Shown piece after piece: positions 46,677 through 64,000 of a DNA stretch of 64,000 nucleotides. Position numbers and translations under genes: made by a program. Source of the stretch: Actinomycetes bacterium (GTDB lineage: Bacteria > Actinomycetota > Actinomycetes > Streptosporangiales > Streptosporangiaceae). Every line of letters begins with the position of its first letter. Position 1 is the first letter of the stretch. The stretch is from NCBI GenBank assembly GCA_025964575.1, contig JAOPYO010000237.1, positions 3,855 to 67,854 of the forward strand. Reading direction: 5' to 3'. A model generated the notes under the pieces. The model saw only the letters and a program-made list of their open reading frames with translations, did no database searches and had not been told where the DNA came from.

Positions 46677-46773
46677 CGACGGGACCTCATGTTCCTCGCA
46701 CCAGGAGGAGGGCTTGCCCTCCGCCTTCACTCAGCTTACGAGTGCACCCTACGAGCCCGGGTGTACGAGAGCT

Positions 46774-48051
46774 TCAGCCAGCCTTCTCGACGGTGTATTC
46801 CTGGCGCACTCCGGCTCGGCCGGAGGTCTGCTCCTTGCCGTTGATCCAGACCCGGCACGAGGAGGGATCGTCGAAGACCGCCGTGAGGGTCTTCATGTCG
46901 TACTGCAGGCCCTGGCCCTTGGGAAGCACTCCGTTGTAGAGGACCTGTGCGTTGCCGGGTATCCCGAGGTAGACCTTGCAGTTGTCGCCGGTGGCCTGGA
47001 CGACCAGAGCGTTGGCGGCGGCGCCCGCGGGCGCGACCTTCGCCTGCGCCGTCGCGCTTGTGGCGGAGGTGCTCGATGCACCTTTGGGCGAGTCGTGTGT
47101 CATCCCCACGGCCAGCGCCCCGGCGCCGATGCCACAGGTCGCGCAGGTGGCGGCGATGAGGGCGAGGGCGATCAGCAGCCGTCGGCGCGGGTTGGTCTCC
47201 CGCTGGCGCCGGGCCCGGGGCCCTGCCACCGCTCGGTCCAGCCGGTCGATGACCCGGGCGTGGGACATCCGGCGGAGGGGATTCTTCTGCAGCAGCCCGT
47301 TGATCACGGGGGCCAGCGCCTCGGCTCGCTGCAGGGGCGCGGGGTCCTCGGTGAGCACCGCAGACAGCGTCGCCATCACGTTGGGGTGGTCGTAGGGCGG
47401 CCGGCCTTCGACTGCGGTATAGAGGGTCGCGCCCAGCGACCACAGATCGGACTGCGGGGTGGCCTTTTCACCCCGGGCGACCTCGGGGGCGACGTAGGCG
47501 GGCGACCCCATGAAGCTGTCCGACCTGGTGATGCGCGCCGACCGATCCGTGATGGCCAGGCCGAAGTCGGTGAGCACCACCCGGCCGTTGTCGGCGAAAA
47601 GCACATTGCTGGGCTTGATATCACGGTGCAAAATGCCGGCGTTGTGCGCGGTGGAGAGGGCGTCGAGCAGCTGTCGGGCGATCTCGGCCACCTTGGCCGG
47701 GGGCAGCGGCCCCTCTTTCTCGATCAGCTGGTCGAGATTGGGGGCTTCGACCAGCTCCATGACGATCCAGGGACAGCCGTGCTCGACCACGACGTCGTAC
47801 ACATCGATGATCGACGGATGCCGTAGTTGCGCGGGCGTCCGCGCCTCGCGCAGGGTCCGCCGGTAGAAGACCGTGCGCTCTTCGTCGTTCAGGTCCGGCG
47901 GTGGTCGCAGCTCCTTGACCGCCACGGTCCGGTCGAGACGCTCGTCGTGGGCCCGCCAGACCGTGCCCATGGCACCACTGCCCAGCTCTGTAACCAGTCG
48001 ATAGCGACCTGCTATCGAGACGTCACTCTGCTGGGCCATGGCGCAAAACAT
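46774..48051 (-). CDS. Ser/Thr protein kinase with one TM and a small extracellular domain
   Basis: GSGAMGTVW, VAVK, HRDIKPSNV, DFG and SPAYVAPE are present. The C-terminal ATGDNCKVYLG...SSCRVWINGKEQ resembles a RodZ-C/DUF4115-like domain. Start is ATG 48051 or 48039. Confidence 0.9.
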   Translation of the reverse strand: MFCAMAQQSDVSIAGRYRLVTELGSGAMGTVWRAHDERLDRTVAVKELRPPPDLNDEERTVFYRRTLREARTPAQLRHPSIIDVYDVVVEHGCPWIVMELVEAPNLDQLIEKEGPLPPAKVAEIARQLLDALSTAHNAGILHRDIKPSNVLFADNGRVVLTDFGLAITDRSARITRSDSFMGSPAYVAPEVARGEKATPQSDLWSLGATLYTAVEGRPPYDHPNVMATLSAVLTEDPAPLQRAEALAPVINGLLQKNPLRRMSHARVIDRLDRAVAGPRARRQRETNPRRRLLIALALIAATCATCGIGAGALAVGMTHDSPKGASSTSATSATAQAKVAPAGAAANALVVQATGDNCKVYLGIPGNAQVLYNGVLPKGQGLQYDMKTLTAVFDDPSSCRVWINGKEQTSGRAGVRQEYTVEKAG

Positions 48052-48189: not shown

Positions 48190-49833
<1,644 letters not shown>

Positions 49834-50449: not shown

Positions 50450-51457
50450 TCAGCTCTGCGGCGGTAGTTCACCGGACCCGCGGACGATCAGCTTCACCGG
50501 AAGCACGACTCGCCGGGGCGGGCCGGTCTCCCCGTTGATCCGGTCGAACAGCAACTCGGCGGCCTGGTTCCCGAGCCGCTTGGGGTCTTGGTAGACGGCG
50601 GTGACCGGAGGGCTGAGCGATTCGGCGCCTTGGAAGTCGTCGAAGCTGATGTGCGCGATGTCGGTGCGCCCGCTCAGGTGCAGAGCGCGGATCACGCCCA
50701 GGGAGGTCTTCGCGTCCGCCGACAGCACCGCTGTCGGACCCAAATCGGCCTCCAGCAGCTTCACCAACCAGGCGGTGGAGTTCTGCTGCCCCATCCCGTC
50801 GAACTGGACCAGCCGCTCGTCGACAGCGAGCCCGGCGTCCAGCATGGCCGCCCGGAAACCCTGATACCGCAGCCTGGTCGTGTAGATGTGCGACCGGTAG
50901 CCGACGAAGGCGATGCGGCGGTGGCCGTGCTCGATCAGATGTCTGGTCGCCATCCGGCTGCCGTTCTCGTTGTCCGCGAGCACGGTGTCGGAGTCATGCT
51001 GGATCGGCGGGCGGTCGACAAAGACGGCGGGGAGCCGCGGTGCCGTCTGATTGAGGTAGGAGTGGTCGCCCGAAGTCGGGATGATCATCAGTCCGGCGAC
51101 ACTGCGGTTCGTCAGCCCGCTGACCGCGACCCGTTCGTTTTCGGGGGCGTAGCCAGAACTGGTGATGATGACGAACATGCCACGCTCGCGGGCGGCCTCC
51201 TCGACCGCGCCGATCACTTCGGCGAAGAAGGGGTCCGCGATGTTCTCCACCACCAGGCCGATGGCGTCGTCCCGGCCTAAGCGCAGCGAACGAGCCACCG
51301 GATTCGGGCGGTACCCGAGTTCCCGGATCGCCACCTGAACACGCTTTGCGGTGGCGGGCGCGACCCCGGGATCATCGTTGATGACCCGGGAGACTGTCTT
51401 CGGGCTCACCCCGGCGAGCACCGATACGTCCCGCAGTGTGGGCCGGCGGGACATCAT
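50450..51457 (-). CDS. LacI family transcriptional regulator
   Basis: PTLRDVSVLAGVSPKTVSRVIND is the HTH, followed by a periplasmic-binding-fold effector domain. The ATG overlaps the pfkB-family stop (ATGA). Confidence 0.9.
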   Translation of the reverse strand: MMSRRPTLRDVSVLAGVSPKTVSRVINDDPGVAPATAKRVQVAIRELGYRPNPVARSLRLGRDDAIGLVVENIADPFFAEVIGAVEEAARERGMFVIITSSGYAPENERVAVSGLTNRSVAGLMIIPTSGDHSYLNQTAPRLPAVFVDRPPIQHDSDTVLADNENGSRMATRHLIEHGHRRIAFVGYRSHIYTTRLRYQGFRAAMLDAGLAVDERLVQFDGMGQQNSTAWLVKLLEADLGPTAVLSADAKTSLGVIRALHLSGRTDIAHISFDDFQGAESLSPPVTAVYQDPKRLGNQAAELLFDRINGETGPPRRVVLPVKLIVRGSGELPPQS

Positions 51458-52455
51458 GCCCCCATTCGTGCGGCTGAGTCGGCGGCCAGATCACGTTCCG
51501 TGCGGGCCGTGCCGGCCAGGAGCGCCGCGATCTGCCTTGCCCGTTCGGGGTCGACCCCGCCGGCGAGTTCCTGCTCGACGGAGGCGGTGGCCGTGGCGAC
51601 CGCGAAGATGACGGCGTCGACCCCGGTCGTGCCCGCTTCCAGCGCCTCCACCAGACCGCCGACGAACGAGTCGCCCGCTCCGATGGGGTTGACGACCCGC
51701 ACCGGGACCGTGGGCACCCAGAACACCTCCTGGGCGTCGCCGAAGGCGGTCCCGGCCGCTCCGGCGGTCACCGCCGCCGAGCGGGCGCCACGGTCGCACA
51801 GTTCCTTGACCGCGGCACAGGCGCGCAGCGGGACATCGTCGCCGGTCTCGGCCACCGCCTCATCGGAATGTCCCCAGAGGACACCCTCGGCCTCGGCCAG
51901 GTTCGGCGTGACGACGTCGGGGTGAGCGCCCAGCACCCCGGCCAGCGCCGTACGCGCCGCGTCGACCACCACGCTCACCCCGGCGCGGTGTGCGATGGCG
52001 ACGAGGCGACCGTATCCGGAGTCGGGCACGCCGGGGGGCATGCTCCCCGAGCACACCAGCGTCCGGTGCCGACCAGCAGCCAGCTCATCGGCCACCATCT
52101 GCTCGTAGCGGTGCCAGGCGTCGGCGGGAATCTCCGGCCCCGGCTCGTTGAGCACGGTCACCCGGCCGGAGTCCTCCAGATAGATGGAGGCCACCCGTAC
52201 CTCGCCGGCGACGGGGACTCCGATGAACTCCACCGGTTCGACGGCGAAGAGCCGGGCGAGCCAGGCGGCGTCGGTCTCCGGCTGGAAGCTCATCAGCGTG
52301 GCCGGCGGTCCGAACGCCGCGGCCACGCGGCCGACGTTGAGACCCTTGCCGCCCGCGGTCACTGCCGCGCGGGACGGCCGTAGCACGCTCCCTGGCCGCA
52401 GTTCAGGCAGCCGGAGTGTCCGGTCCACCGTGATGTTGGGGGTCGCGATGAGCAA
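51454..52455 (-). CDS. PfkB family hexose-phosphate kinase (1-phosphofructokinase/tagatose-6-phosphate kinase-like)
   Basis: TTG start lies 6 nt after GGAGGGA. MLIATPNITVDRT, TAGGKGLNV and the C-terminal NPIGAGDSFVGG are present. Confidence 0.85.
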   Translation of the reverse strand: MLIATPNITVDRTLRLPELRPGSVLRPSRAAVTAGGKGLNVGRVAAAFGPPATLMSFQPETDAAWLARLFAVEPVEFIGVPVAGEVRVASIYLEDSGRVTVLNEPGPEIPADAWHRYEQMVADELAAGRHRTLVCSGSMPPGVPDSGYGRLVAIAHRAGVSVVVDAARTALAGVLGAHPDVVTPNLAEAEGVLWGHSDEAVAETGDDVPLRACAAVKELCDRGARSAAVTAGAAGTAFGDAQEVFWVPTVPVRVVNPIGAGDSFVGGLVEALEAGTTGVDAVIFAVATATASVEQELAGGVDPERARQIAALLAGTARTERDLAADSAARMGA

Positions 52456-52482
52456 GGGTCCCTCCAGGTCGGAAATCGATGT

Positions 52483-53142
52483 CTAAAGGCTCGTGACATC
52501 GTTGTCAACGATACCGGTCACGTATTCGTGGAACGTGCCCAGCAGGACCGCTGTGACCTGATCCACAACGGCCGCCGTGGTGTCCACGGGGATGTGCGGC
52601 ACCGCTGGTGGATCGGTCACACCGGAGGCCAGAAACGCGTCGAGGTCGGCCAGCTTGCGCCGGTCGCGTGCCGCGCCGCGAGTTGTGAGGCGGCGCACGA
52701 GCTCGTCGGGTGGGCAGTCGGCCCAGACGAGCACGACGCCGCCCGGCGGGTGCAGACGCGCGACGAGCTTCAGCCAGGCGGCCGGGTCGGACCGCTCGGC
52801 GGTGAAGGGCGCCACCAGCACCACCGGGACATCGGCCGCCAGGCATCCCTCGGCGGTGTGGAGGAGCGCGTCGTAGGTCGCCTGGCGCGTCGCGGAGCGC
52901 ACCCGCGGGTCGTCGAGATCGCCGGGCGCCGCCCCTACCAGCTCGGCGACCACCGCTGTGAGCGGTCCGGTGAGAACGTCCTGGTCGAGCAGGGCCGCAT
53001 GGATCCGCCGGGACAGCGCCGCCCCGAGCACGCTCTTACCGCTGGCCGGCGCTCCGGCCACGACGTACGCCCGGACCGGCCCACGTGACCGCCGCCGCAC
53101 CCTGTCCTCGGATCCGTGTTCCTGACGCCCGGCGCTGTTCAC
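52483..53142 (-). CDS. P-loop kinase (AAA_33/gluconokinase-like fold), substrate unknown
   Basis: GTG at 53142 overlaps the upstream TGA (GTGA). The Walker A motif is GAPASGKS. It is about 220 aa with no other domain. Confidence 0.7.
   Translation of the reverse strand: MNSAGRQEHGSEDRVRRRSRGPVRAYVVAGAPASGKSVLGAALSRRIHAALLDQDVLTGPLTAVVAELVGAAPGDLDDPRVRSATRQATYDALLHTAEGCLAADVPVVLVAPFTAERSDPAAWLKLVARLHPPGGVVLVWADCPPDELVRRLTTRGAARDRRKLADLDAFLASGVTDPPAVPHIPVDTTAAVVDQVTAVLLGTFHEYVTGIVDNDVTSL
52494..52507. promoter_or_regulatory. LacI-type operator-like palindrome TGACATCGTTGTCA (internal copy)
   Basis: This 14-mer is identical to the one at 60858-60871. It lies in the last codons of the P-loop kinase gene, 39 nt upstream of the pfkB-family start. 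Confidence 0.6.
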
Positions 53143-54161
53143 GGCGTGACCTGTCCTCCGTACGACTCGTACCAGTCGGCGGGCATGGCGGCCGCCGCGG
53201 TGCCGACCGAGACCCATTCGGCCCACGGCCGACCGTGTGCCCGGACGATCCCGTTCAGCGTGGCGAGCCGCTCACCCGCCTGGGCCACCGACTTACGCCG
53301 CTGTGCCTCTGGCAGATGGCCCACCGCGTCGCCCCAGATCGCCCGTCCGGCGATGTATCCGCTCGCCCCCGCCTGTGCGGTGATCTCTATTTGAACCGCG
53401 AAGTCCTCGTATCCTGCGCCCTCGCTGAGCAAGACCCAGGGAACGTCGATGGCGGCGTCGAGTTCGCGGGCCGCGGCGGTGGCTGATGCGCGGTCCGCGG
53501 CCGACTCGATCGAACCGGGAAACTGCACCTTGAGTATGTCGGCGCCCAGGTTCGCGAACTCCGCCGCCGCGGCGACGATGGCGTCCGCGCGGCGGCCTCG
53601 CATCGCGGGTTCGGCGAGGTCCTCGCCCTCGAGGGGGTACCAGATCGGCTCGACGATCAGTGGCAGCTGGAGTTCCCGGCAGGACGCGACCAGGTCGGCC
53701 ACCAGCTTGCGCTGTCCGGCGGCGATTTCGTCGAGTTCGGTGCGGTAGAAGACGAAGAGCTTCACCCCGTCGGCACCGATCTTCGCGATCTTCTCCAGGG
53801 TCCAGTCCGGACGTAGTTTCGTCTCCAGGCGCCAGCCGCCCGGCGTATAGCCGAGCTGTTCGATCGGGGCCACCAGGCCTACTGAGCCGGGCAGCGCACG
53901 GGTCGCGATCGCCTGCCCCAGCGACCACATCGGGTCGACGAGCAGTGCGGACGCATGCCGCGACAATTCGGCCACCAGCTCCAGCTTGGAGGCCACCACG
54001 GTCTCGTGCGGGACGCGGGAGATGTCTTTGTCGAACAGCTCCAGGTAGTTCTCCGGGTGGTCGATCGCGGCGATGAGAAAGAAGCCGTCCTCGCTGGCGA
54101 GACGGGTCAGCCTGCGTACCGTGCCGAGCCGCTGGAGATCGACGGCGGGCTCTGGATTCAT
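53139..54161 (-). CDS. LacD/YihT-family class I aldolase-like protein (divergent N-terminal motif)
   Basis: ATG at 54161. IAAIDHPENY stands where LacD has DQRG. ADILKVQFPG (candidate Schiff-base Lys) and GYIAGRAIWGDAV are present, plus a ~40-aa C-terminal extension. Confidence 0.7.
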   Translation of the reverse strand: MNPEPAVDLQRLGTVRRLTRLASEDGFFLIAAIDHPENYLELFDKDISRVPHETVVASKLELVAELSRHASALLVDPMWSLGQAIATRALPGSVGLVAPIEQLGYTPGGWRLETKLRPDWTLEKIAKIGADGVKLFVFYRTELDEIAAGQRKLVADLVASCRELQLPLIVEPIWYPLEGEDLAEPAMRGRRADAIVAAAAEFANLGADILKVQFPGSIESAADRASATAAARELDAAIDVPWVLLSEGAGYEDFAVQIEITAQAGASGYIAGRAIWGDAVGHLPEAQRRKSVAQAGERLATLNGIVRAHGRPWAEWVSVGTAAAAMPADWYESYGGQVTP

Positions 54162-54200
54162 GTCGCGCCCTTCTGCGGTGATGCGGTTGGCGGATGGTGC

Positions 54201-54231
54201 GGTGCCGGGCCCGGCCCGCAGGCCCGGCACC
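54201..54231 (-). promoter_or_regulatory. Intercistronic stem-loop after the solute-binding-protein gene
   Basis: GGTGCCGGGCC-cggcccgca-GGCCCGGCACC is a perfect 11-bp stem with no U tract on the coding (minus) strand. Confidence 0.5.
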
Positions 54232-54246
54232 GTGCTGCCGGGTGGG

Positions 54247-55257
54247 TCAGCACTTGTCCTTGTAGATGTACTTGTTGACCGCGGGGTCGTTGATGTTGTC
54301 CTTGGTCACGATGAGCGATTCGGTGGCGATGCTCGCCTGCACCGGCTTGCCCTCCAGCGCGTTGGCGGCCTGCTCGACTCCCTGAACGCCGATGTCGTAC
54401 GGCTTCTGCGCGACCAGGGCCTGCACGTCACCCGCTTGCAGCTGCTTGATCTGGTCCGGGCCCGCGTCGAAGCCGACCACCTTGACCTTTCCTCCCTTGC
54501 CGGCCGCCCGGATGCCCGTCGAGGTGCCCTGGGCGGAGAACAGGTTGGTGGCGAAGACGCCCACCAGGTCGGGGGTGCGCTGCAGCTCCGCCTGGACGAT
54601 CTTCGCGGCTTCCTGCGGCGAGTTGTGCGAGTACTGTGTGGCGGCGGCCAGCGTGAAGTTCGGGTACTTGGTCTTGACCGCCTCCTCGAAGCCGGCCACC
54701 CGGGCGTCCACCGAGGACACCCCGGGGTCGGTCGAGATGACCAGCACCTTGCCCTTCGCTCCGTTCATGAGCGTGTTCAGCGCCTCGGCCGCCTTTGCCC
54801 CACCCAGCTTGTTGTCGGTGGCGATGCGGGAGGCGCCGATGGTGGTGTCAGTGACCGTGGTGTCGACGAGCACCACCTTGCTGCCCGCGTCCTGGATCCG
54901 CTTCAGCGGTGTGGCGGAGGCCTTGACGTCGTTGGGTGCCACCAGCAGCGCGGCCGGCTTGGCCGCGCCAACCGCGTCGAGCAGCGGGTTCTGCAGCGTC
55001 GCGTCGAACTTGTCCGGACCCTGCACCTGCAGGTTGACGCCGAGAGCCTTGGCCTTCTCCTTGGCCCCGCATTCCATCGAGACGTAGAACGGGTCGCCCT
55101 TGACGCCGACCATGAGCACGAACTTCTTGCCGGAGACCCCGCCGGTGGTCGATCCCGAGCCGGAAGTGGAACCCGAATCGGAATTCCCCCCGCACGCGGC
55201 CAGGAACAGCAGACCGGCGGTGATCGTCGTGCCCATCACGGTTCTGTGCATTCTCAT
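54247..55257 (-). CDS. ABC sugar transporter substrate-binding lipoprotein (RbsB/FrcB type, PBP type I)
   Basis: The lipobox is LLFLAACGG, with a Ser/Gly linker and a typical ribose-binding-protein-like fold sequence (KFVLMVGVKGDPFY...VVLVDTTV). Confidence 0.9.
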   Translation of the reverse strand: MRMHRTVMGTTITAGLLFLAACGGNSDSGSTSGSGSTTGGVSGKKFVLMVGVKGDPFYVSMECGAKEKAKALGVNLQVQGPDKFDATLQNPLLDAVGAAKPAALLVAPNDVKASATPLKRIQDAGSKVVLVDTTVTDTTIGASRIATDNKLGGAKAAEALNTLMNGAKGKVLVISTDPGVSSVDARVAGFEEAVKTKYPNFTLAAATQYSHNSPQEAAKIVQAELQRTPDLVGVFATNLFSAQGTSTGIRAAGKGGKVKVVGFDAGPDQIKQLQAGDVQALVAQKPYDIGVQGVEQAANALEGKPVQASIATESLIVTKDNINDPAVNKYIYKDKC

Positions 55258-55314
55258 GACACCCTCCTCAAGGTGTGGCGGTGAACTGCGGTGGATGAGG
55301 TGGTGGTGCGGATA

Positions 55315-56376
55315 TCAGCTGCGGTCGCGGGAGCGCCGCCGCAACTGGTCGAACCAGACGGCCGCGATGAGGACGAAGCCCACCGCGACGTCCTGCCAGT
55401 AGGGCTGGACCCCGACGATGACGAAGCCGTTCTTCAGCACCGCCGGAATCCAGACGCCGATGAGGGTGCCCACGATCGAGCCGACACCGCCGAACAGGCT
55501 GGTGCCGCCCAAGGCCACCGCGGTGATGGCCTGCAGGTTGTCGGTGGAGTGCCCGCCGACACTGGTGGTACCGAAATAGGCCAGCGACAGGAACCCGGCG
55601 AAGCCGGCCGCCGTCCCCCCGATGATGTAGATCTTGAGCAGATGCCGTTCGACGTTGATCCCCGCGCGGCGCGCCGCCTCCGGGTTGGATCCGATGGCGA
55701 ACGTGTGCCGTCCGAACACCGCCATGTGCAGCAGTACGTAGCCGCCGATGACCGTGAGCAGCGCGATCGGGATCAGATTGGGCACACCCGCGATCAACGA
55801 GCCGTGCCCGACCGGGTCCAGCGCGTAGGTCGCCGTGTTCACCCCGTTCTGCAGGATCAGCGCCATGCCCAGACCGGCGCCGAGCGTGCCCAAGGTGGCC
55901 AGCAGAGGCGGCACCTTCAGGTAGGCGACCACGACCCCGTTGATGGTGCCGATGATCAGTCCGGCCACCAGTGCCCCGGCCAGCGCCACCAGGATGTAGA
56001 ACGCACTGGTCTTGTCGGCCGTGACGTCCGCCGCGGTCGTCCCGGGACCGGTGCTTATCAGCTTGAGGGCCTGCACGGCGAAAACTTCGCCCAGGACGAT
56101 GCCACTGGGAATGGACAGGTCCACACCCGCCGTGATGACCACGAACGTCGTGCCGACGCTGACCACGGTCAGAATCGCGACGTTCTGGGCCAGCTGCACG
56201 AAGTTGCTGCTCTGGGTGAACAGCCCGGGTGCCAGGAGGGAGAAGGTCGCAATGATCAGCAGCAGCACGGTGAACGTCACGATCGACGGGTTGCGAACGA
56301 TCGTGCGCACCACCGACTCGCGCGGGGTCAACATTTCTTGGGCCTGCGGCGAGCTCGGCTCTGTCTCTAGGCTCAT
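55315..56376 (-). CDS. ABC sugar transporter permease (RbsC/FrcC type)
   Basis: 353 aa and about 10 TM helices, with the conserved GGTSLFGGVGSIVGT block. Confidence 0.9.
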   Translation of the reverse strand: MSLETEPSSPQAQEMLTPRESVVRTIVRNPSIVTFTVLLLIIATFSLLAPGLFTQSSNFVQLAQNVAILTVVSVGTTFVVITAGVDLSIPSGIVLGEVFAVQALKLISTGPGTTAADVTADKTSAFYILVALAGALVAGLIIGTINGVVVAYLKVPPLLATLGTLGAGLGMALILQNGVNTATYALDPVGHGSLIAGVPNLIPIALLTVIGGYVLLHMAVFGRHTFAIGSNPEAARRAGINVERHLLKIYIIGGTAAGFAGFLSLAYFGTTSVGGHSTDNLQAITAVALGGTSLFGGVGSIVGTLIGVWIPAVLKNGFVIVGVQPYWQDVAVGFVLIAAVWFDQLRRRSRDRS

Positions 56377-57149
56377 GGTGCCACCTCGTTCGTGAACGCC
56401 CCGGAGATCGCGGCGATCAGACGGTCGACGTCGGTTTCGCCGCGGCGGAACCGGGCGACCCGGACGCCCAGGCGCAGCACTTCGATGCGGTCGGCGACCT
56501 GCAGCACCTCGGGAAGGTTGTGGGAGACGAGCACGACAGCGATGCCCCGGTCACGGATGTTCTGGACCAGTTCCAGTACCTTCGCCGTCTGGATGACGCC
56601 GAGCGCGGCGGTCGGCTCGTCCATGATGATCACTTCTGTCGCCCACATGGCCGCCCGCGCGATGGCCACGGACTGCTTCTGGCCGCCGGAGAACGCCGCG
56701 ACCGGTGCCCGCATGTCCTGCACCAGACCGACGCCCATGTCGCTGAACGCGGCGGCGGTCCGCCGTCGCATCTCCGGGTGGTCGTGCAGGAAACCCCAGC
56801 GGCGCACCTCACGGCCGAGGAAGACGTTCGCCGCCGCGTCCAGGTCGGGGGCGAGTGCGAGATCCTGATAGACGGTCTCGATTCCCCGGTTCTTGGCGTC
56901 GTGCGGGTCCGTCAGGCGAACCGCGGCACCGTTGATGCGCACCTCGCCCTCGTCCGGCGCCTGCACCCCGGACAGGATCTTGATGAGGGTGGATTTGCCC
57001 GCCCCGTTGTCACCGACCAGCGCGGTGACCTCGCCAGGGAACGCCTCGAACGAGGCGCTGCGCAAGGCCCGCACCTGCCCGAAGCTCTTCACCACGTTGG
57101 ACGTGCTCAGCGCGGGCACAGCGCCGTTGCCGTCCGCATCGCCGGTCAT
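56373..57149 (-). CDS. ABC sugar transporter ATP-binding protein (single cassette, FrcA type)
   Basis: Walker A GDNGAGKST, signature FSGGQKQ, Walker B IIMDEPTAAL. Both ends overlap their neighbours with ATGA. Confidence 0.9.
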   Translation of the reverse strand: MTGDADGNGAVPALSTSNVVKSFGQVRALRSASFEAFPGEVTALVGDNGAGKSTLIKILSGVQAPDEGEVRINGAAVRLTDPHDAKNRGIETVYQDLALAPDLDAAANVFLGREVRRWGFLHDHPEMRRRTAAAFSDMGVGLVQDMRAPVAAFSGGQKQSVAIARAAMWATEVIIMDEPTAALGVIQTAKVLELVQNIRDRGIAVVLVSHNLPEVLQVADRIEVLRLGVRVARFRRGETDVDRLIAAISGAFTNEVAP

Positions 57150-58051
57150 CGTCCCCCGACCTCACGCCAGGACGGACCGTGGCCTTCGATCGCCGTATTG
57201 AGGGCCGTCATCCGCTCCAGCGCCGTGGTCCGCAGGAAGTCCCGCCGCTCCTCCCCGAGGAGCGTCACGGCCTCGCCCCAGAACGCGCGCCCGGCGATGT
57301 ACCCGCACGCCCCCGCGTCCATCGCGGTGAGTACCCGCTCGACGAACTGGTCGTACTTCACGCCGGCTGAGAGCAGCGCCCATGGCACGTTCCCGCAGAC
57401 CTTGCTGGTCTCGAGGCAGCCGTCCTCGTCGCCCGGCCACTCCAGCTTCAGCAGGTCCGGACCCAGTTCGGCCAGCAGTTCCGCAGACCGGATGACCATC
57501 TTCTTCTGCTGTTCGGCGGAGAACGGGTCCTCGGTCGGCAGATGTGTCACCAGTGGCTCGATGACCGACGGAATGCCGTGCTCGCGGCAGTCGGCGATGA
57601 CGGCCGAGACCGCGTCGAGGGCCTCCTGTGCCAGATCGGGCTCGCCGGAGATCACGGGGCGGTCGGGCCGCCAGCGGACCAGGAACTTCAGTGCCACGCC
57701 ACCGTTGCCGCTCACGAAGGCCGGACCGCGGTCGGCACCTGAGTACTCCGTCCGCTGCTCACCGTTCCAGACCGGCTGCGGTGACCGCTCGCTCGAGATG
57801 AGCAGTCCCGCGGACTGGTCGAGCGCACCGGCGGCCCGCACCGGACCGACGCCGTACTCGACATCGGTGAGCACCCCGGAGGCCAGCGGCGAGAGGGCAC
57901 TGATCACGTCCACCTTGAAAGCGCTCAGGTCCTCGTCGGCCGACGGCCGACCGGCCTTGTCGAGCATTCTGCGCAAGGTTCCTCGCTGGTCCATGGCGAG
58001 GATGGCGAACTTTCCCGCGTCGTCAGCGATCCGATCCAGACTGAAGGACAT
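57146..58051 (-). CDS. LacD/YihT-family class I aldolase (tagatose-1,6-bisphosphate aldolase-like)
   Basis: ILAMDQRGTL (LacD has ALAFDQRG), DLLKLEWPG and GYIAGRAFWGEAV are present. Confidence 0.8.
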   Translation of the reverse strand: MSFSLDRIADDAGKFAILAMDQRGTLRRMLDKAGRPSADEDLSAFKVDVISALSPLASGVLTDVEYGVGPVRAAGALDQSAGLLISSERSPQPVWNGEQRTEYSGADRGPAFVSGNGGVALKFLVRWRPDRPVISGEPDLAQEALDAVSAVIADCREHGIPSVIEPLVTHLPTEDPFSAEQQKKMVIRSAELLAELGPDLLKLEWPGDEDGCLETSKVCGNVPWALLSAGVKYDQFVERVLTAMDAGACGYIAGRAFWGEAVTLLGEERRDFLRTTALERMTALNTAIEGHGPSWREVGGR

Positions 58052-58057
58052 GTGGTG

Positions 58058-59434
58058 CTACCTCTCTATGCTGGGGCGGACTGCCCCTGGGTTTGGGTGA
58101 GTGGCCGCGGCCGGCAACGAAACACCGACGGCGGCCGCCGCCAGCAGCGCGGCACCGTAGGCGCCGAGTTCGGCGACGTCCGTGATGGTCATCGCTGGGT
58201 ACTGCCGGTGCTTGGCGGCGAGCAGAGCGGGGTTGTGCAGCCAGCCGCCCGCCGCGACGACCCGTTGGTAGGGGCCGACCAGTGCGTCGATGCGGGCCAA
58301 TACCCGCTCGGCGTCAGCGGTCAGGCCGTCCACCGCGGCACGCCAAAGCCGCGCCGGAGTGACACCATCGGTGATGCCGGCGAGACCGAAGTGCTTGTCC
58401 CGCGGGTCGACCAGCCGGAGCGTGGGGTGGTCTCCGGGCACGGCCAGCGCCTGCTCACCCAGCGCCATGCGATCGGCGCTGGAGGTCATGCCGAGCATCG
58501 TGGCGATCCGGTTGAGGGTCAGCCCCGTCGGCAGCCCGGCGAGGACACACAGATGATCGGCGACGACTCCCCAGCCCGCGGACATGCCTTGAGCGGTCAG
58601 TGCGCCGATGCGCTCGGGAGCCAATGGCGGAAGCACCGTACGGACCAGCGCCTCAGCCGTTCCCAATGAGTCGAACAGGGCGCCGTCGGCCGCGGCGCCG
58701 ACACCGTAGGCCGCGACCTGGTGATCGTGGCCGGCGACCGTCAGAACCGCCCCATGCAGAGTGGCAGGCACGCTGTCACCGCCGGCGCGACCGGCCGGAG
58801 TACCCGCCACCATCGGGTCGGGCAGCAGGGACGGCCAGCCGAGCAGACTGAGTGCCTCATCCCAGGGGCGGGCGCGCCTGAGCTCGAATACACCGGTCCG
58901 GCTGGCCAGCGACAGCTCCGTGACGGATTCGCCGCCGAGTCGGCGAACCACCCACTCGGCAACCGAGTAGAACCGGATGGCGTTCTTGGTGTCCGGGCGG
59001 TTCCGGCGCAGCCACAGCAGTTTGGCCAGTGACGGCATCGCGGTCAGCGGCAGGCCGGTGGTGGTCTGGAACGTCTCGGTGCCCAGTTCTCGTGCGATCG
59101 TGTCGACGTCGCCCCGCGGGTCGTGCCAGGCGATCGCGGAGGCCAGCGGCCGGTCCCGCCCGTCCACCAGCACCCCTGTCTCGGCCATTCCGGTGACACC
59201 GATCGCCAGCACCCGAGGATCGTGGTCGGCGCGTGCCCCGGCGGCGGCCGCGGCCTCCGCCGCCACGGTCTGGGCGAGTTGCACGAGGCTCATCGGATCG
59301 AGCTCTGACCGGCCTCCGCCACCGCGCCAGGGGGTGGACCGCTCCGATCCGCCACAGACCGTGCCCTGCGGGTCCACGGCGATCGCCTTGACCCGGGTGG
59401 TGCCGACGTCGATGCCGACGAACAGGTCGATCAC
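58058..59434 (-). CDS. FGGY family carbohydrate kinase
   Basis: GTG at 59434 overlaps the isomerase TGA (GTGA). LFVGIDVGTTRVKA and the C-terminal GGWLHNPALL...ELGAYGAALLAA are present. Confidence 0.85.
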   Translation of the reverse strand: MIDLFVGIDVGTTRVKAIAVDPQGTVCGGSERSTPWRGGGGRSELDPMSLVQLAQTVAAEAAAAAGARADHDPRVLAIGVTGMAETGVLVDGRDRPLASAIAWHDPRGDVDTIARELGTETFQTTTGLPLTAMPSLAKLLWLRRNRPDTKNAIRFYSVAEWVVRRLGGESVTELSLASRTGVFELRRARPWDEALSLLGWPSLLPDPMVAGTPAGRAGGDSVPATLHGAVLTVAGHDHQVAAYGVGAAADGALFDSLGTAEALVRTVLPPLAPERIGALTAQGMSAGWGVVADHLCVLAGLPTGLTLNRIATMLGMTSSADRMALGEQALAVPGDHPTLRLVDPRDKHFGLAGITDGVTPARLWRAAVDGLTADAERVLARIDALVGPYQRVVAAGGWLHNPALLAAKHRQYPAMTITDVAELGAYGAALLAAAAVGVSLPAAATHPNPGAVRPSIER

Positions 59435-60477
59435 CGCGCTGTCCCCATGTGCTGGGGCAGCGGTGGCCGGCAGACGATGGCCTCGGCCATCCCTTCCAGT
59501 TGCCACTCTCCGGCGAGGAAGGGAACGACCGCCACCTCGCCACGACTCAGGTCGAGACTCTCCCCGGACTCGGTGACCAGGCGGCCCGAGCCGGTCGTGA
59601 CGAGCGCCACCGCGAAGCCGGCGGCCACGACAGGGCTGGTGCCGACCGCACGCAGTCGATGGGCCCGGAAGTAGGGCTCGGCTGCGACAGGCAGCAGGCC
59701 GACGATGCCGGCCGTGTCAAGTCGCTCTCGGGGCAGCAGCAGACCATCGAGATCGGATTCGTTCAGCGCGCCGAGGTGCAACGCGCCGAGGGCGATGTCG
59801 AAACCCAGCCCCAGATGGCCGTCTCGACGCAGATCAAGGGTGAGTCCTTCCGCCTCAAGCATGATCGACAGGTCGGTGGGTTCCTGTAGTTCCAGGACGA
59901 ACACACCCGCGTCGATGGAGTGGGGAAGGCCCGCCGGCACCAGGACCGCGTCGCCCGGTCGTACGGTGTGGGCGCGCAACGACCCGACCAGGCCGTCGGA
60001 GTCCCCGGCGTCGACCATCGCCCGCACCTGTGACAGGCGCATGGACTCGGCGAAGCCGAGCCGGACCCTGGCCCCTTCATCGACGTCCAGGACGATCCAC
60101 GCCTCGGTCTTGCCGTGCGGGATCCCCAGGTGCTTTCGAGAGAACGCACGGTCGGGATGCAGGTGCACCGGCAGCCGCTGGCCGGCGTCGAGCAGCTTGA
60201 CCAGAAGCTCGGTGGACGCACCGTAGCTGTCCACATGTGCTGGTCCGAGCCAGCTCTGCGGGTCCGCCATGACCGCGTCACGCAGCAGGGTGCCCTCGGG
60301 GAGCCTCGAGAGCCCACGCGCCGGATCCGATGTCATCGTGGTCATCGAAGCGATCCACTCCTCCGGGCGGCGGGGTCCGTCGGCCCCACTGCCGCCGCGC
60401 AACGCGGTGATGCGGTCGCCGCCCCGGTAGGAGTGCTCGACCTGGTTCACCGGTAGCAGGTGCGTACGGGCTTTCAT
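59431..60477 (-). CDS. Class I mannose-6-phosphate isomerase-like cupin
   Basis: ATG at 60477 follows AGGAG. LLVKLLDAGQRLPVHLHPD and HGKTEAWIVL are the PMI type I metal-binding blocks. Confidence 0.75.
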   Translation of the reverse strand: MKARTHLLPVNQVEHSYRGGDRITALRGGSGADGPRRPEEWIASMTTMTSDPARGLSRLPEGTLLRDAVMADPQSWLGPAHVDSYGASTELLVKLLDAGQRLPVHLHPDRAFSRKHLGIPHGKTEAWIVLDVDEGARVRLGFAESMRLSQVRAMVDAGDSDGLVGSLRAHTVRPGDAVLVPAGLPHSIDAGVFVLELQEPTDLSIMLEAEGLTLDLRRDGHLGLGFDIALGALHLGALNESDLDGLLLPRERLDTAGIVGLLPVAAEPYFRAHRLRAVGTSPVVAAGFAVALVTTGSGRLVTESGESLDLSRGEVAVVPFLAGEWQLEGMAEAIVCRPPLPQHMGTAR

Positions 60478-60530
60478 GCGGCTCCTGCCATGGTCATCAC
60501 CGTTGCCGCAGGTTCGCTCGCACGACCATG

Positions 60531-60552
60531 CCGGACATCCGCGGATGTCCGG
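60531..60552. promoter_or_regulatory. Perfect 22-bp palindrome in the operon leader
   Basis: CCGGACATCCGCGGATGTCCGG lies 54-75 nt upstream of the isomerase ATG. Confidence 0.35.
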
Positions 60553-60616
60553 CGGCGCCGGGGCGGGTGAGTCTCCGTGGTGTGCACGTCGCCTCCAGAG
60601 TCGATGGTCAGAGCGA

Positions 60617-60630
60617 TGACATCGATGTCG
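60617..60630. promoter_or_regulatory. LacI-type operator-like palindrome TGACATCGATGTCG
   Basis: It matches the 14-mer at 52494 and 60858 at 12 of 14 positions and contains the perfect 12-bp palindrome GACATCGATGTC. Confidence 0.55.
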
Positions 60631-60857
60631 TGGCCGGGACGTTAGCTCGCAGGACCGTGCAGGTCAAGAGGTCGGGTAGCGCGTGAGATGTATTCGTAAC
60701 ACGTTGGAAACACACGGCGCACATTCCGCCGACATTTTGGCTAAATCGGGTAAATGACGGTGAAGTTCCTCGTCAAGATGAATGCAAGATGAGGACTAAG
60801 TGAAATCTTGTGGCGCATTGGGCTGTGCCGTCGGCATTGGATTTGATTCCTAAAGAC

Positions 60858-60871
60858 TGACATCGTTGTCA
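60858..60871. promoter_or_regulatory. LacI-type operator-like palindrome TGACATCGTTGTCA
   Basis: It is identical to 52494-52507 and lies in the AT-richer part of the 530-bp divergent intergenic region. Confidence 0.6.
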
Positions 60872-61006
60872 TTTTCCGAAGCGTTTTCGCGGGCCGTCCT
60901 TGGACCTCAAAAACTGCGGCCGACCCCGCGGAGTTGACGGGTCAGTGATTGCCCGGGAAGACAGCGGGTAGTACTCGCGTCCCCGACACAAGGAGGCGAC
61001 TCGTCC

Positions 61007-61237
61007 ATGAGTCTCGATGAAGCCGCCCGGCAGCTACGTTCCACCGCCCACGACGCCCAGGTGGCCTTCGACTGCGTGGGACTGGGGGACCTGGAACGTG
61101 CTCACCTCCACGTGATCACCGCGCGTACCGCGGCCGACGCCGCGGAGGCGGCGTTGCGTGAGGCTCTCGCGCGGATGTCACCCGAGGAGGCGGCCATCGA
61201 GGGCGAACGGGCCATCGCCGCCACCGAAGGCGCCTGA
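61007..61237 (+). CDS. Small hypothetical helical protein (76 aa)
   Basis: The ATG lies 9 nt after AAGGAGG. The ORF is Ala/Glu-rich with G/C third positions. I recognise no motif. Confidence 0.5.
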   Translation: MSLDEAARQLRSTAHDAQVAFDCVGLGDLERAHLHVITARTAADAAEAALREALARMSPEEAAIEGERAIAATEGA

Positions 61238-61243
61238 CTCCTG

Positions 61244-61336: not shown

Positions 61337-62554
61337 TCAGACGACGGGGCGCTCCATGACCGCCGGGTTCTCCACGGCACCCTCGACGGGCGTAGGTTCA
61401 AAACCCTTCGCCAGCATGAGGATCACCAGGATGAGGATCGTCGGCACGATGAAGGCGATGCGGACCGGCGTGATGGCCCCGAGAATCGCCGCACCGAGCA
61501 CGAACCCGACGTAGTTGAAGATGTTGACCCGGGCCACCGCGACGCCGAGCCCGGTCGGGTCGACCCTGGCGACGGCAGAGAACGACACCGGAGCGACCAC
61601 ACAGAGGCCCAGGCCCATGATGGTGAACGCGACGATGGCCAGGGGGGCGTTGGGCGCGACCACGACTCCGATCATGCCGACCAGACCGACCAGGCTGCCC
61701 ACCCTCACGACCTGGGTGGCGCCGTACCTGCGCACGCCGAAGTCCGCGATGCCCCGGCTCAGCACCATGGCCACCTGATAGACGACGTAGGCGAGCGGGG
61801 CGACTGCGGTGCTGCTCTTCAGATCGTCGGTCAGGTATTTGGTGCCATAGAGGGAGACGGCGGCGTCGGCGATGTAGAAGCAACCCATGGCGGTGCCGAC
61901 GATGAGGATCGGTCGCCACGGCACCCGCTTGGCCGCGGCCTTGAGGGCTTCGGAACTGGGTGCCGAACCCTCTTCGTCCTTGCCGAAGAGCCGGTGGCCG
62001 GTGGCGAGAGAGGCTCCGATGCCGACGACGGCGGGGATCAAGAAGCCGACGAGCAGCGACATGTCCACCTTGTTCGCCAGCGAGGCCCAGAGCCCGCCGA
62101 GGATGCCGGCGACGCTCCAGATCGCGTAGAAGCCGGTGAGCATGCTCTGCCCGTAGCGGCGTTCGACCGCGACGGCCTGGGCGTTCATCGACGCGTCGAC
62201 CGCGCCGACGAAGAGACCGAAGAGCGCCGTGCAGACGTACAGCGCGGGGTTGTTGTCGCCGGTCAGGCCGATCAGCGCGATGGTCACGCATACAGCGGGC
62301 TGGCTGATGCGCAGCACGATCGCGCTGCCGAATCGGGGGAAGACCAGACCGGACAGCACGCTTCCCACACCCGCGATCACGGGGACCAGGAGCAGCACGA
62401 TCCCGATCGCGCTGTCGCTCAGGTGGTGGGCCTTCTGGATCTGCGGCACCCGCGTCACCAGTGAGGCGAAACAGAGGCCTTGGATGGCGAAAGCGGCATA
62501 GGCCGAGATCCGTGCCTGACGATCCCGTGTGGTGATGCCGGAGGTCATTGGCAT
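61337..62554 (-). CDS. MFS transporter
   Basis: 12 predicted TM helices. Start is ATG 62554 or 62548, after GAGAGAGGG. Confidence 0.85.
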   Translation of the reverse strand: MPMTSGITTRDRQARISAYAAFAIQGLCFASLVTRVPQIQKAHHLSDSAIGIVLLLVPVIAGVGSVLSGLVFPRFGSAIVLRISQPAVCVTIALIGLTGDNNPALYVCTALFGLFVGAVDASMNAQAVAVERRYGQSMLTGFYAIWSVAGILGGLWASLANKVDMSLLVGFLIPAVVGIGASLATGHRLFGKDEEGSAPSSEALKAAAKRVPWRPILIVGTAMGCFYIADAAVSLYGTKYLTDDLKSSTAVAPLAYVVYQVAMVLSRGIADFGVRRYGATQVVRVGSLVGLVGMIGVVVAPNAPLAIVAFTIMGLGLCVVAPVSFSAVARVDPTGLGVAVARVNIFNYVGFVLGAAILGAITPVRIAFIVPTILILVILMLAKGFEPTPVEGAVENPAVMERPVV

Positions 62555-62689
62555 CCCTCTCTCGCGCGCCTGCGAATCGGATGCTCGACAGGTCCGGATT
62601 TGGACAGATAACATGAAGAATGTTCACGTCAGGGTAGGCATCGACCCAAGCCGGGTCAAGAGTACTGTTCCGCGGCTATCGTCTGAATC

Positions 62690-63355: not shown

Positions 63356-64000
63356 CTACAAGGCGCGGTCGAAGTTGATGGCGCTGTAGGCCCGCAGCTT
63401 GCCGAGCTGGTGCTCGCTCTGGACCCTGCGGATGGTGCCGCTGCGGGCGCGCATGACGAGCGAATGTGTGGAAGCGGTCCCCTTGCGGTAGCGGACGCCG
63501 CTCACCAACTCGCCGTCGGTGATGCCCGTGGCGGCGAAGAACACGTCGTCGGAGGTGACCAGGTCGTCGGTGGTCAGCACCCGCGAAAGGTCATGCCCGG
63601 CATCGATGGCCTTCTGCCGCTCCGCCTCGTCCAGAGGCCACAGCTTGCCCTGGATCACGCCGCCGAGGGCCTTGATCGCACAGGCGGTGATGATGCCCTC
63701 GGGGGTGCCGCCGACGCCGAGCAGCAGGTCGACACCGGTGCCCTCCCGGGCGGCCATGATCGCGCCGGCCACGTCACCATCGGTGATGAACTTGATGCGT
63801 GCGCCGGCCTCGCGGATCTCCTTGACGATGCCCTCGTGCCGGGGACGGTCCAGGATGATGACCGTCACATCCTCGACGGAGGAGCCCTTGGCACGGGCCA
63901 CGGCCCTGATGTTGTCACCGACCGGGCGCTCGATGTCGACCGCGTCGGCGGCCTCCGGCCCGGTGACGAGCTTCTCCATGTAGAACACCGCTGACGGGTC
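63356..64000 (-). CDS. glpX: Class II fructose-1,6-bisphosphatase GlpX (C-terminal part; 5' end beyond window)
   Basis: DPSAVFYMEKLVTGPEAA...GVGGTPEGIITACAIKALGG...SHSLVMRARSGTIR is present. The frame stays open to position 64000, and the track's first 'M' is an internal GTG (Val). Confidence 0.9.
   Translation of the reverse strand, partial: DPSAVFYMEKLVTGPEAADAVDIERPVGDNIRAVARAKGSSVEDVTVIILDRPRHEGIVKEIREAGARIKFITDGDVAGAIMAAREGTGVDLLLGVGGTPEGIITACAIKALGGVIQGKLWPLDEAERQKAIDAGHDLSRVLTTDDLVTSDDVFFAATGITDGELVSGVRYRKGTASTHSLVMRARSGTIRRVQSEHQLGKLRAYSAINFDRAL

Follow-up and report, generated by a model that had tools for sequence, protein, structure and literature searches.

A ten-gene actinobacterial operon with two class I aldolases and three kinases: a candidate route for uptake and cleavage of a mannoheptulose- or tagatose-like ketose

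Leyn et al. (2017; PMC5507952) described a locus in Rhodobacteraceae that encodes an ATP-binding cassette (ABC) transporter, a COG3684 aldolase, a ROK kinase, and a P-loop kinase, and predicted that it converts mannoheptulose to the 7-phosphate and then to the 1,7-bisphosphate, which is cleaved to dihydroxyacetone phosphate (DHAP) and erythrose-4-phosphate. In Escherichia coli Nissle 1917 (EcN), an ABC-fed D-tagatose cluster has been proven experimentally, with tagatose-6-phosphate phosphorylated to tagatose-1,6-bisphosphate and cleaved to DHAP and glyceraldehyde-3-phosphate (PMC9720028). Here we analyze a 64,000-nucleotide stretch of DNA (the window; G+C ~68%) from a member of the Streptosporangiaceae (contig JAOPYO010000237.1), in which ten co-directional, mostly overlapping genes on the minus strand (50450–60477) encode an ABC importer, two class I aldolases (Ald1 and Ald2), three kinases, a cupin resembling phosphomannose isomerase (PMI), and a LacI-family repressor. 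By comparative analysis, the closest relative of this operon is the system for which Leyn et al. predicted mannoheptulose catabolism. A first-pass annotation of the window, which held that the operon fits no known pathway, had overlooked that published bioinformatic prediction for a simpler relative; we, too, found no experimentally characterized locus of such composition, but the operon has a precedent in a predicted ketose-bisphosphate route (mannoheptulose/tagatose-type), of which it is an enlarged version from actinobacteria. We put at about even the chance that it serves LacI-controlled uptake and cleavage of a neutral lyxo/manno 2-ketose, likeliest D-mannoheptulose (C7) and/or D-tagatose (C6).

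The clue to the substrate lies in the RbsB-type solute-binding lipoprotein (54247–55257, minus strand like all genes of the operon; LAAC lipobox). Its best match in the PDB is 5DKV (E 1.8e-55, 40% identity), an entry titled Agrobacterium vitis Avis_5339, target EFI-511225. The two proteins are identical at 11 of 11 positions aligned with the residues through which E. coli ribose-binding protein (RBP) contacts ribose: both read DFYADTRNNDQ where RBP, the sequence of which was verified against 2DRI, has NFFNDRRFNDQ. This signature is kept in 30 of 31 actinobacterial orthologues. Citing an unpublished observation from the Enzyme Function Initiative (EFI), Leyn et al. (2017; PMC5507952) state that Avi_5339 binds mannoheptulose, and they point out the likeness of this sugar to D-tagatose. 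The predicted ligand of the window protein is a lyxo/manno-configured 2-ketopyranose, D-mannoheptulose or D-tagatose. Single-sequence AlphaFold2 (AF2) modeling of this lipoprotein gave a poor result (predicted local distance difference test, pLDDT, 41), which served only for retrieval of the 5DKV title. The importer is completed by a ribose-type permease (55315–56376; BPD_transp_2) and an ATPase with a single nucleotide-binding domain (NBD; 56373–57149; Pfam ABC_tran), which are 34% and 45% identical, respectively, to their counterparts in the Rhizobium tumorigenes locus described next.

A locus of the type described by Leyn et al. is present on plasmids of Rhizobium tumorigenes and Aureimonas, with a binding protein ~87% identical to 5DKV. 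The window operon shares with this alphaproteobacterial locus the binding protein (40–45% identical, with 11 of 11 pocket positions), the ATPase, a LacD-family class I aldolase, an AAA_33-type P-loop kinase, and the overall logic of two kinases and an aldolase. In the alphaproteobacterial locus, for which the pathway is bioinformatic only, these functions are carried by a ROK–P-loop fusion and one aldolase of its own clade under a SorC regulator, whereas the window operon has an FGGY kinase in place of ROK, a LacI regulator, and, in addition, a PfkB kinase, an aldolase of a 'DH' clade, and the PMI-like cupin. No ROK kinase is encoded in the window operon, and FGGY stands in its place in all actinobacterial variants. 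The COG3684 aldolase and the COG0529-like P-loop kinase of the locus of Leyn et al. have counterparts in the window operon, namely Ald1 and Ald2 for the former and the AAA_33 kinase for the latter. In Rhizobium tumorigenes (L081:5296-6753) and Aureimonas (L082:5265-6698), the product annotated as 'ROK family protein' is a ROK kinase with a C-terminal AAA_33-like fusion; in Aureimonas, the ATPase gene is followed by one for an unannotated 315-aa protein with no Pfam match (L082:11971-12918).

Turning to the carbon–carbon cleavage step, Ald1 (53139–54161) and Ald2 (57146–58051) are Pfam DeoC/LacD proteins that score 84 and 67 bits, respectively, against a DeoC cutoff of 23.8; NCBIfam PRK12858 matches Ald1 above its cutoff of 184 (203 bits) and Ald2 below it (166 bits). 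The best PDB match of Ald2 is E. coli YihT (7AG1, E 1.1e-32), and its identity to the EcN YihT is 33%. The segments ILKVQFP of Ald1 and LLKLEWP of Ald2 align with DLYKVEMP of YihT, in which Lys193, the equivalent of LacD Lys205, has been assigned as the Schiff-base lysine (PMC8006165). Likewise, LLSEG...AGRAIW of Ald1 and LLSAG...AGRAFW of Ald2 align with ILSSG...AGRAVW of YihT and so contain the equivalents of its C1-phosphate-site residues Ser226, Ser227, and Arg253 (PMC8006165). The catalytic residues Lys212, Glu172, Lys135, and Arg274 of Ald1 are invariant in 14 homologues. Judged by these alignments, both aldolases retain the full class I catalytic set. An AF2 model of Ald1 (pLDDT 87.7), in accord with the (beta/alpha)8 fold of the family, has as its top Foldseek match 8TNF (template modeling (TM) score 0.77, ~31% identity), titled sulfohexulose-1-phosphate aldolase of Paracoccus onubensis, followed by LacD and YihT; TM scores to 8TNF and LacD are 0.77–0.79. 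Full-text literature searches with the PDB codes 8TNF and 5DKV gave nothing relevant.

In a neighbor-joining tree, Ald2 is sister to YihT, the Rhizobiales aldolase forms a third branch, and Ald1 falls in a separate clade that includes members from Pantoea, Microbacterium, and Chloroflexota and in which 'DH' replaces 'DQR'; 8TNF, which keeps DQR, branches at the base of this clade. The replacement concerns the N-terminal (A/L)DQR(G/E) motif, which reads AMDQRG in Ald2 and is replaced in Ald1 by the invariant AAIDHPENY. Ald2 consistently adjoins transporter genes, and Ald1 is habitually paired with PfkB across genomes, as in Terrabacter, where PfkB adjoins the Ald1-like aldolase. In Pantoea, the genes for a DeoR regulator, an Ald1-like aldolase, PfkB, and the EIIC component of a phosphotransferase system (PTS) lie together, suggesting conversion of a sugar phosphate to a bisphosphate that is passed to the aldolase. 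In Microbacterium sp. A204 (L050:7427-11534), the Ald1-like aldolase (DHLADF) is flanked by a 187-aa SIS-domain phosphosugar isomerase and an extra triose-phosphate isomerase (TIM) paralogue, with an RbsB-type ABC importer nearby. These contexts of Ald1-like genes point to ketose-bisphosphate cleavage. Assignment of either protein to the DUF2090/IolC aldolases, entertained in the first-pass annotation, was rejected: Pfam gives DeoC only, no iol genes are present, and the PDB match of Ald1 that is labelled DUF2090 is titled a sulfohexulose-1-phosphate aldolase. The sole match to NCBIfam myo_kin_aldol comes from the PfkB kinase and is weak (15 bits).

The FGGY-family kinase (58058–59434; Pfam FGGY_N, 112 bits) is divergent, its best NCBIfam matches being XylB (108 bits) and GlpK (91 bits), both far under cutoff. 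It occurs in every actinobacterial variant of the locus and is the putative first kinase acting on the imported ketose. The AAA_33 P-loop kinase (52483–53142; Pfam, 55 bits) has its gene immediately downstream of that for Ald1 in almost every locus and is the only second kinase in Streptomyces javensis. It aligns with the C-terminal domain of the Rhizobiales ROK–P-loop fusion (hhalign probability 96.7%, E 3.9e-10), which itself matches Pfam AAA_33, and its S. javensis orthologue matches the fusion by blastp (4e-5); the link is drawn from these two comparisons because the best 120 matches in the homologue search were all stand-alone actinobacterial kinases, without fusions. We infer that the AAA_33 protein acts on a ketose phosphate and so supplies the second phosphate. 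The PfkB-family kinase (51454–52455; TTG start) scores 202 bits with TIGR03168 (1-phosphofructokinase/hexose kinase; cutoff 216) and 190 bits with TIGR03828 (1-phosphofructokinase), and its PDB matches are FruK (3e-24), LacC (1e-19), and Pfk-2 (2e-18); EcN YihV is matched at E 0.005. It retains the SGSMPPG segment, missing in YihV, and a TR-motif arginine that aligns with R90 of Pfk-2. On this evidence the protein belongs to the FruK/LacC/Pfk-2 subfamily of phospho-ketose kinases, and it could serve as an alternative second kinase.

In the pathway that we propose, the ketose would be imported by the lipoprotein-dependent ABC importer and receive its first phosphate from the FGGY kinase, most simply on the terminal CH2OH, as with xylulokinase and with sedoheptulokinase, a member of the FGGY family. 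The AAA_33 kinase or the FruK/LacC-like PfkB kinase would add the other phosphate, and Ald2 and/or Ald1 would then split the ketose-1,7- (or 1,6-)bisphosphate via a lysine Schiff base, yielding DHAP and D-erythrose-4-phosphate or, for a C6 sugar, glyceraldehyde-3-phosphate in place of the latter. Because both products are central metabolites, no dehydrogenase would be needed. The cupin would act as an auxiliary isomerase, probably channeling a related aldose, free or phosphorylated, into the ketose-phosphate pool. A bolder version, which we advance tentatively and hold to be rather doubtful, is that this is the first dedicated bacterial catabolic pathway for a seven-carbon ketose, comprising three new activities, namely an FGGY heptulokinase, an AAA_33 ketose-phosphate kinase, and two specialized aldolases that would release erythrose-4-phosphate and include a 'DHPENY' class of specificity not recognized before, together with a cupin acting as a heptose-7-phosphate (or talose-6-phosphate) isomerase through which aldoses would enter. 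Its substrate would be D-mannoheptulose, perhaps with a feed of heptoses or heptitols, and the aldolases would perhaps differ by chain length or C3/C4 stereochemistry.

Natural variants of the locus bear on this proposal. An Ald1 alignment, used to scan a single genome from each species, gave 80 loci, which were searched by tblastn with the ten window proteins. All ten genes occur together in 18 of these 80 loci and nine of ten in another 11; the gene order takes at least three forms, and the sources are Micromonosporaceae, Microtetraspora, Nocardioidaceae, Nitriliruptoraceae, and Intrasporangiaceae. The grouping is far beyond chance, and the operon is real and widely conserved among actinobacteria. 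When the other neighboring open reading frames (ORFs) of ~40 loci were clustered, no further conserved neighbor emerged, and no dehydrogenase, mutarotase, second transporter, glycosidase, or exporter is conserved across them; the flanking genes are those for GroEL, an amino-acid permease, an acyl-CoA ligase, and the like. Cupin–FGGY, Ald1–AAA_33, PfkB–LacI, and Ald2–transporter form stable pairs.

Reduced sets are also found. Streptomyces javensis has AAA_33, LacI, FGGY, an Ald2-like aldolase, and a transporter of the major facilitator superfamily (MFS); Pseudonocardia acaciae has AAA_33, PfkB, LacI, FGGY, an Ald2-like aldolase, and an ABC importer; a metagenome-assembled genome (MAG; locus L088) has the cupin, FGGY, Ald2, an ABC importer, PfkB, and LacI; Thermopolyspora has the cupin, FGGY, Ald1, PfkB, and LacI; and Phycicoccus has the full set minus the cupin. 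These variants therefore show that two kinases are enough when joined by one aldolase and a transporter, that PfkB and AAA_33 are interchangeable, as are Ald1 and Ald2, and, from the cupin-less forms, that the transported sugar does not require the cupin. Seen against the simpler variants, the window operon seems to unite two alternative kinase/aldolase sets: module A (transporter, Ald2, and AAA_33) appears to have been joined to module B (cupin, PfkB, and Ald1), with the FGGY kinase apparently common to both. Module A occurs separately in S. javensis and the Rhizobiales, and module B in Thermopolyspora.

The cupin itself (59431–60477), the first gene of the operon, carries the Pfam domains MPI_cupin_dom and PMI_typeI_cat of class I PMIs. 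It scores 62 bits with TIGR00218 (manA), against a cutoff of 116, its best PDB match is the Bacillus subtilis PMI 1QWR (E 1.3e-14), and the HxH...GKTE...H metal motif is kept; it is a putative metal-dependent aldose/ketose (phosphate) isomerase. The family is very large in actinobacteria, and the cupin–FGGY pair recurs outside the ten-gene locus. In several actinobacterial MAGs, ~58%-identical cupins (L086:8001-9047, L087:7001-8047) lie in a conserved housekeeping neighborhood comprising ppa, a dacB-like S13 peptidase, the cupin, Zincin_2, tilS, hpt, ftsH, and folE/P/B/K, where the family may be the cell's ordinary phosphomannose isomerase. An abundant type of freshwater actinobacterial contig (213 member sequences; L083:5955-10390) has the cupin–FGGY pair divergent from an FbaB/LsrF-like class I aldolase beside a Gfo/Idh/MocA oxidoreductase, with a PPK2 gene nearby, and looks like another uncharacterized isomerase/kinase/aldolase unit. 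Enemella evansiae (L054:2221-14409) has a sorbitol/mannitol locus (SBP_bac_1 ABC importer, SDR, PfkB, and mannitol dehydrogenase) together with an operon for a zinc-dependent alcohol dehydrogenase (Zn-ADH), an Ald1-like aldolase, and FGGY and a convergent LacI–cupin pair; this arrangement hints at polyol (hexitol or heptitol) entry to the same chemistry.

Several considerations weigh against the proposed ketose-bisphosphate route. For the window operon and the Rhizobiales locus alike, the pathway is a prediction. The pocket comparison is a sequence alignment to the contacts of E. coli RBP, not to the structure of 5DKV. The identity of the 5DKV ligand as alpha-D-tagatopyranose is presumptive, and mannoheptulose binding by Avi_5339 is reported at second hand from an unpublished observation. 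The closest characterized relatives of both aldolases act on 1-phosphates of sulfosugars, not on bisphosphates. Fuculokinase and rhamnulokinase, which are FGGY kinases, phosphorylate C1, and the two phosphorylations could therefore occur in the opposite order to that proposed. The model does not account for the translational coupling of cupin and FGGY, nor for the fact that at least 18 genomes keep a pair of second kinases along with a pair of aldolases; the obvious candidate reasons for the duplication are chain length (C6 vs C7) and C3/C4 stereochemistry.

Among established pathways, the EcN tagatose cluster is the closest experimentally proven analogue, following the same logic with non-homologous parts: a class II GatY-like aldolase, a two-NBD ATPase, an aldose 1-epimerase, a DeoR regulator, and, as second kinase, the housekeeping PfkA. 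Its binding protein was rejected as an orthologue (28% identity, different pocket HFYSDVRIGDQ). The LacABCD pathway resembles the window operon in combining a PfkB-family ketose-phosphate kinase with a LacD-family class I aldolase whose substrate is a (3S,4S) ketose bisphosphate; unlike it, the window operon has ABC uptake and three kinases. Neither an RpiB-type LacAB isomerase nor a PTS was found in the operon or in the conserved neighborhoods, and the equivalog scores are far below cutoff (lacC TIGR01231, 87 bits vs 409.6; lacD TIGR01232, 50 bits for Ald1 and 67 bits for Ald2 vs 432), which led us to reject the LacABCD tagatose-6-phosphate pathway as such. The first-pass annotation had proposed an ABC-fed variant of this route in which the cupin replaces LacAB. 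Of its three hypotheses this one lies closest to the evidence, given the ketose pocket, the PfkB subfamily, and the class I residues; nothing points to replacement of LacAB by the cupin, loci that import the same sugar lack the cupin, and the substrate may be C7.

Two alternatives give the cupin a place on the main route. One adds a FruK-type step to the logic of the L-fucose and L-rhamnose pathways, in which, likewise, an isomerase is coupled with an FGGY kinase and an aldolase then releases DHAP: the cupin would isomerize a free manno/talo aldose, FGGY would phosphorylate C1, PfkB (or AAA_33) would phosphorylate the distal end, and the aldolases would cut the bisphosphate, the substrate being an aldose or an aldose plus a ketose. 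Translational coupling of cupin and FGGY fits this scheme, as do the cupin–FGGY pair, class I aldolase, and oxidoreductase of the freshwater contigs and Enemella, which make up a classical set, the 1-phosphofructokinases that are the best models of PfkB, and the fact that PMI enzymes weakly isomerize free lyxose, mannose, and talose. The fucose and rhamnose pathways proper, however, use class II aldolases, a single phosphorylation, and a lactaldehyde oxidoreductase, whereas in the window operon the aldolases are class I, additional kinases are encoded, and an oxidoreductase is missing; moreover, the binding pocket matches that of a ketose binder, the same transporter occurs without the cupin in the Rhizobiales, P. 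acaciae, and Phycicoccus, and the 58%-identical cupins in a housekeeping context suggest a genuine phosphosugar (mannose-6-phosphate-type) isomerase. We consider this scheme unlikely. The other alternative, a two-substrate scheme resembling the Embden–Meyerhof–Parnas (EMP) pathway, accounts for all ten genes. FGGY would add a phosphate to the terminal hydroxyl of a ketose (mannoheptulose) and to that of the aldose related to it; the ketose phosphate would pass directly through AAA_33 to Ald2 and the aldose phosphate through the cupin and PfkB to Ald1, the enzyme pairs differing because the bisphosphates differ in chain length or C3/C4 configuration. In accord with it, AAA_33, Ald2, and the transporter on one side and the cupin, FGGY, PfkB, and Ald1 on the other each occur alone, the Microbacterium Ald1-like aldolase beside a SIS isomerase follows a kinase–isomerase–kinase–aldolase logic, and DHPENY vs DQRG is the only major difference between Ald1 and Ald2 in the active-site region. 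Yet the pairing is not strict, with PfkB and Ald2 occurring without Ald1 (L088) and AAA_33, PfkB, and Ald2 together (P. acaciae); AAA_33 adjoins Ald1, not Ald2, in almost all loci; and FGGY kinases are not known to act on aldopyranoses. This scheme is, in our judgment, decidedly unlikely. The two converging branches envisaged in the first-pass annotation survive in a different sense than was proposed, as two merged modules that share FGGY.

That annotation also considered a sulfo-EMP-like route, in which sulfoquinovose, sulfofucose, or sulfo-mannose would be isomerized by the cupin through mimicry between sulfonate and phosphate, with PfkB as sulfoketose kinase and sulfohexulose-1-phosphate aldolases. 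The sulfo-EMP and sulfohexulose systems (YihS/V/T/U; P. onubensis 8TNF) do provide the nearest solved aldolases, YihT for Ald2 (1e-32) and 8TNF for Ald1, and in them, too, a PfkB-family kinase adjoins the aldolase. However, the transporter of the window operon is of a different class, its three kinases would be superfluous for such a route, and its pocket is that of a neutral-ketose binder. Loci of the 8TNF type in Shinella and Deinococcus encode an SSADH-like sulfolactaldehyde dehydrogenase, a TSUP/AEC exporter, an SBP_bac_1-type ABC importer, and a FucI-like isomerase or a GH31-like barrel, and none of these genes is found in the window or in ~40 related loci. Neither the window flanks nor ~40 related loci encode a sulfolactaldehyde reductase or dehydrogenase or an exporter for sulfonates; the operon has no gene for a sulfoquinovose isomerase (PF07221 or FucI-like) or a GH31 sulfoquinovosidase, its sole isomerase being PMI-like. 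Known sulfoquinovose isomerases are of the YihS type or FucI-like, as is SqvD/SftI, and not PMI-like (PMC9594981), and the window PfkB, which is not YihV-like, keeps phosphosugar-kinase features that are missing from sulfofructose kinases, in which the TR motif and RRS triad are absent (PMC8006165). Genuine sulfosugar loci having a different make-up, we rejected this reading as very improbable. A system for autoinducer-2 (AI-2) or another small diketone is less credible still: an RbsB-type importer, an LsrK-like FGGY kinase, and an LsrF-like DeoC enzyme would suit it, and NCBIfam gives weak matches to LsrB (40 bits), LsrK (49 bits), and LsrA/C/D. These are far under their cutoffs and rank below the matches to other sugar systems, both aldolases belong to the LacD/YihT type rather than LsrF, LsrG is missing from the operon, and the pocket suits a hexo- or heptulopyranose; with sub-threshold matches only, an Lsr assignment was rejected. 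As a separate observation, the yih region of EcN (L093:20203-28761) has no yihS or yihQ annotated in the stretch and carries a gene for a zinc-dependent alcohol dehydrogenase after the YihT-like aldolase, a layout that differs from that of K-12.

Mannoheptulose, sedoheptulose, and tagatose are plant and food sugars, the bacterial catabolism of which is largely uncharted; tagatose is also a sweetener and crop-protection agent. The locus family spans soil Actinomycetota and plant-associated Rhizobiales, and its public annotation goes no further than 'tagatose-bisphosphate aldolase / predicted kinase / mannose-6-phosphate isomerase'. The operon offers a compact, complete candidate enzyme set, and its natural 'knock-out' variants reveal interchangeable parts. 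If correct, the proposed ketose-bisphosphate route would give a function to the large 'DH' clade of LacD-like proteins, to the AAA_33 kinase family, and to the widespread PMI-like cupin family, and the synthesis of rare sugars would gain new aldolases and kinases of defined stereochemistry.

Regarding the architecture of the operon, profile searches of the ORFs with Pfam and NCBIfam bear out the minus-strand, coupled ten-gene set of the first-pass annotation, family by family, including the unrelated folds of the three kinases. Its aldolase motifs (AAIDHPENY, LKVQ, and GYIAGRAIWG in Ald1; AMDQRG, LKLE, and GYIAGRAFWG in Ald2) read as given, and the sequence has the GTGA overlaps it described at cupin/FGGY and Ald1/AAA_33, the ATGA overlaps at Ald2/ATPase, ATPase/permease, and PfkB/LacI, and the 6-nt gap between FGGY and Ald2. 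The longest ORFs are too long for three genes, for which the likely starts are 54161 (Ald1), 59434 (FGGY), and 53142 (AAA_33). The hairpin that had been placed after the binding-protein gene is also there, past the stop codon at 54201–54231, and consists of an 11-bp GC stem (GGTGCCGGGCC-9 nt-GGCCCGGCACC). Since it is without a T-run, this GC-rich hairpin is probably an mRNA-stabilizing or processing element and not a terminator.

The last gene of the operon encodes the LacI-family repressor (50450–51457; Pfam LacI and Peripla_BP_3), for which there are good candidate operators in the AT-richer promoter region, all palindromes with GACATC/GATGTC arms. A perfect 24-bp palindrome with GACATC arms, composed of the half-sites GCCGGACATCCG and CGGATGTCCGGC, lies upstream of the cupin gene at 60530–60553; ATGACATCGATGTCGT at 60616–60631 is a 16-bp palindrome with one mismatch, and a weaker third operator-like copy lies at 60857–60872. 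The exact palindrome core TGACATCGATGTCA is found upstream of the cupin in loci L001, L003, L007, L008, and L009 and precedes PfkB in locus L004, whereas shuffled sequence gave a mean of 0.01 matches to the operator pattern per window. No Rfam family or riboswitch was matched between 49800 and 61400; a search for sigma-70-like promoters gave no match, and terminator-like matches were at noise level.

Unrelated core genes flank the operon and encode two fumarases (one of class II, one of class I), a Ser/Thr kinase, an MFS transporter, and GlpX; the operon has an AT-richer promoter region of its own, and the cluster is therefore a self-contained insert. The two fumarases, class II FumC (45282–46730) and the class I Fe-S enzyme (48190–49833), are non-homologous and encoded almost next to each other on the minus strand, with the gene for the Ser/Thr protein kinase (46774–48051) between them. 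Upstream of the fumarase region lies a gene for a PIN–PhoH fusion, a PhoH-like ATPase with an N-terminal PIN domain (42290–43702), unrelated to the operon. Upstream of the operon are the MFS transporter gene (61337–62614, minus strand) and a glpX-type fructose-1,6-bisphosphatase gene (63356–63988) that reaches past the end of the window. Between the operon promoter and the MFS gene, a small Ala/Glu-rich ORF of ~76 codons runs on the plus strand (61008–61238).

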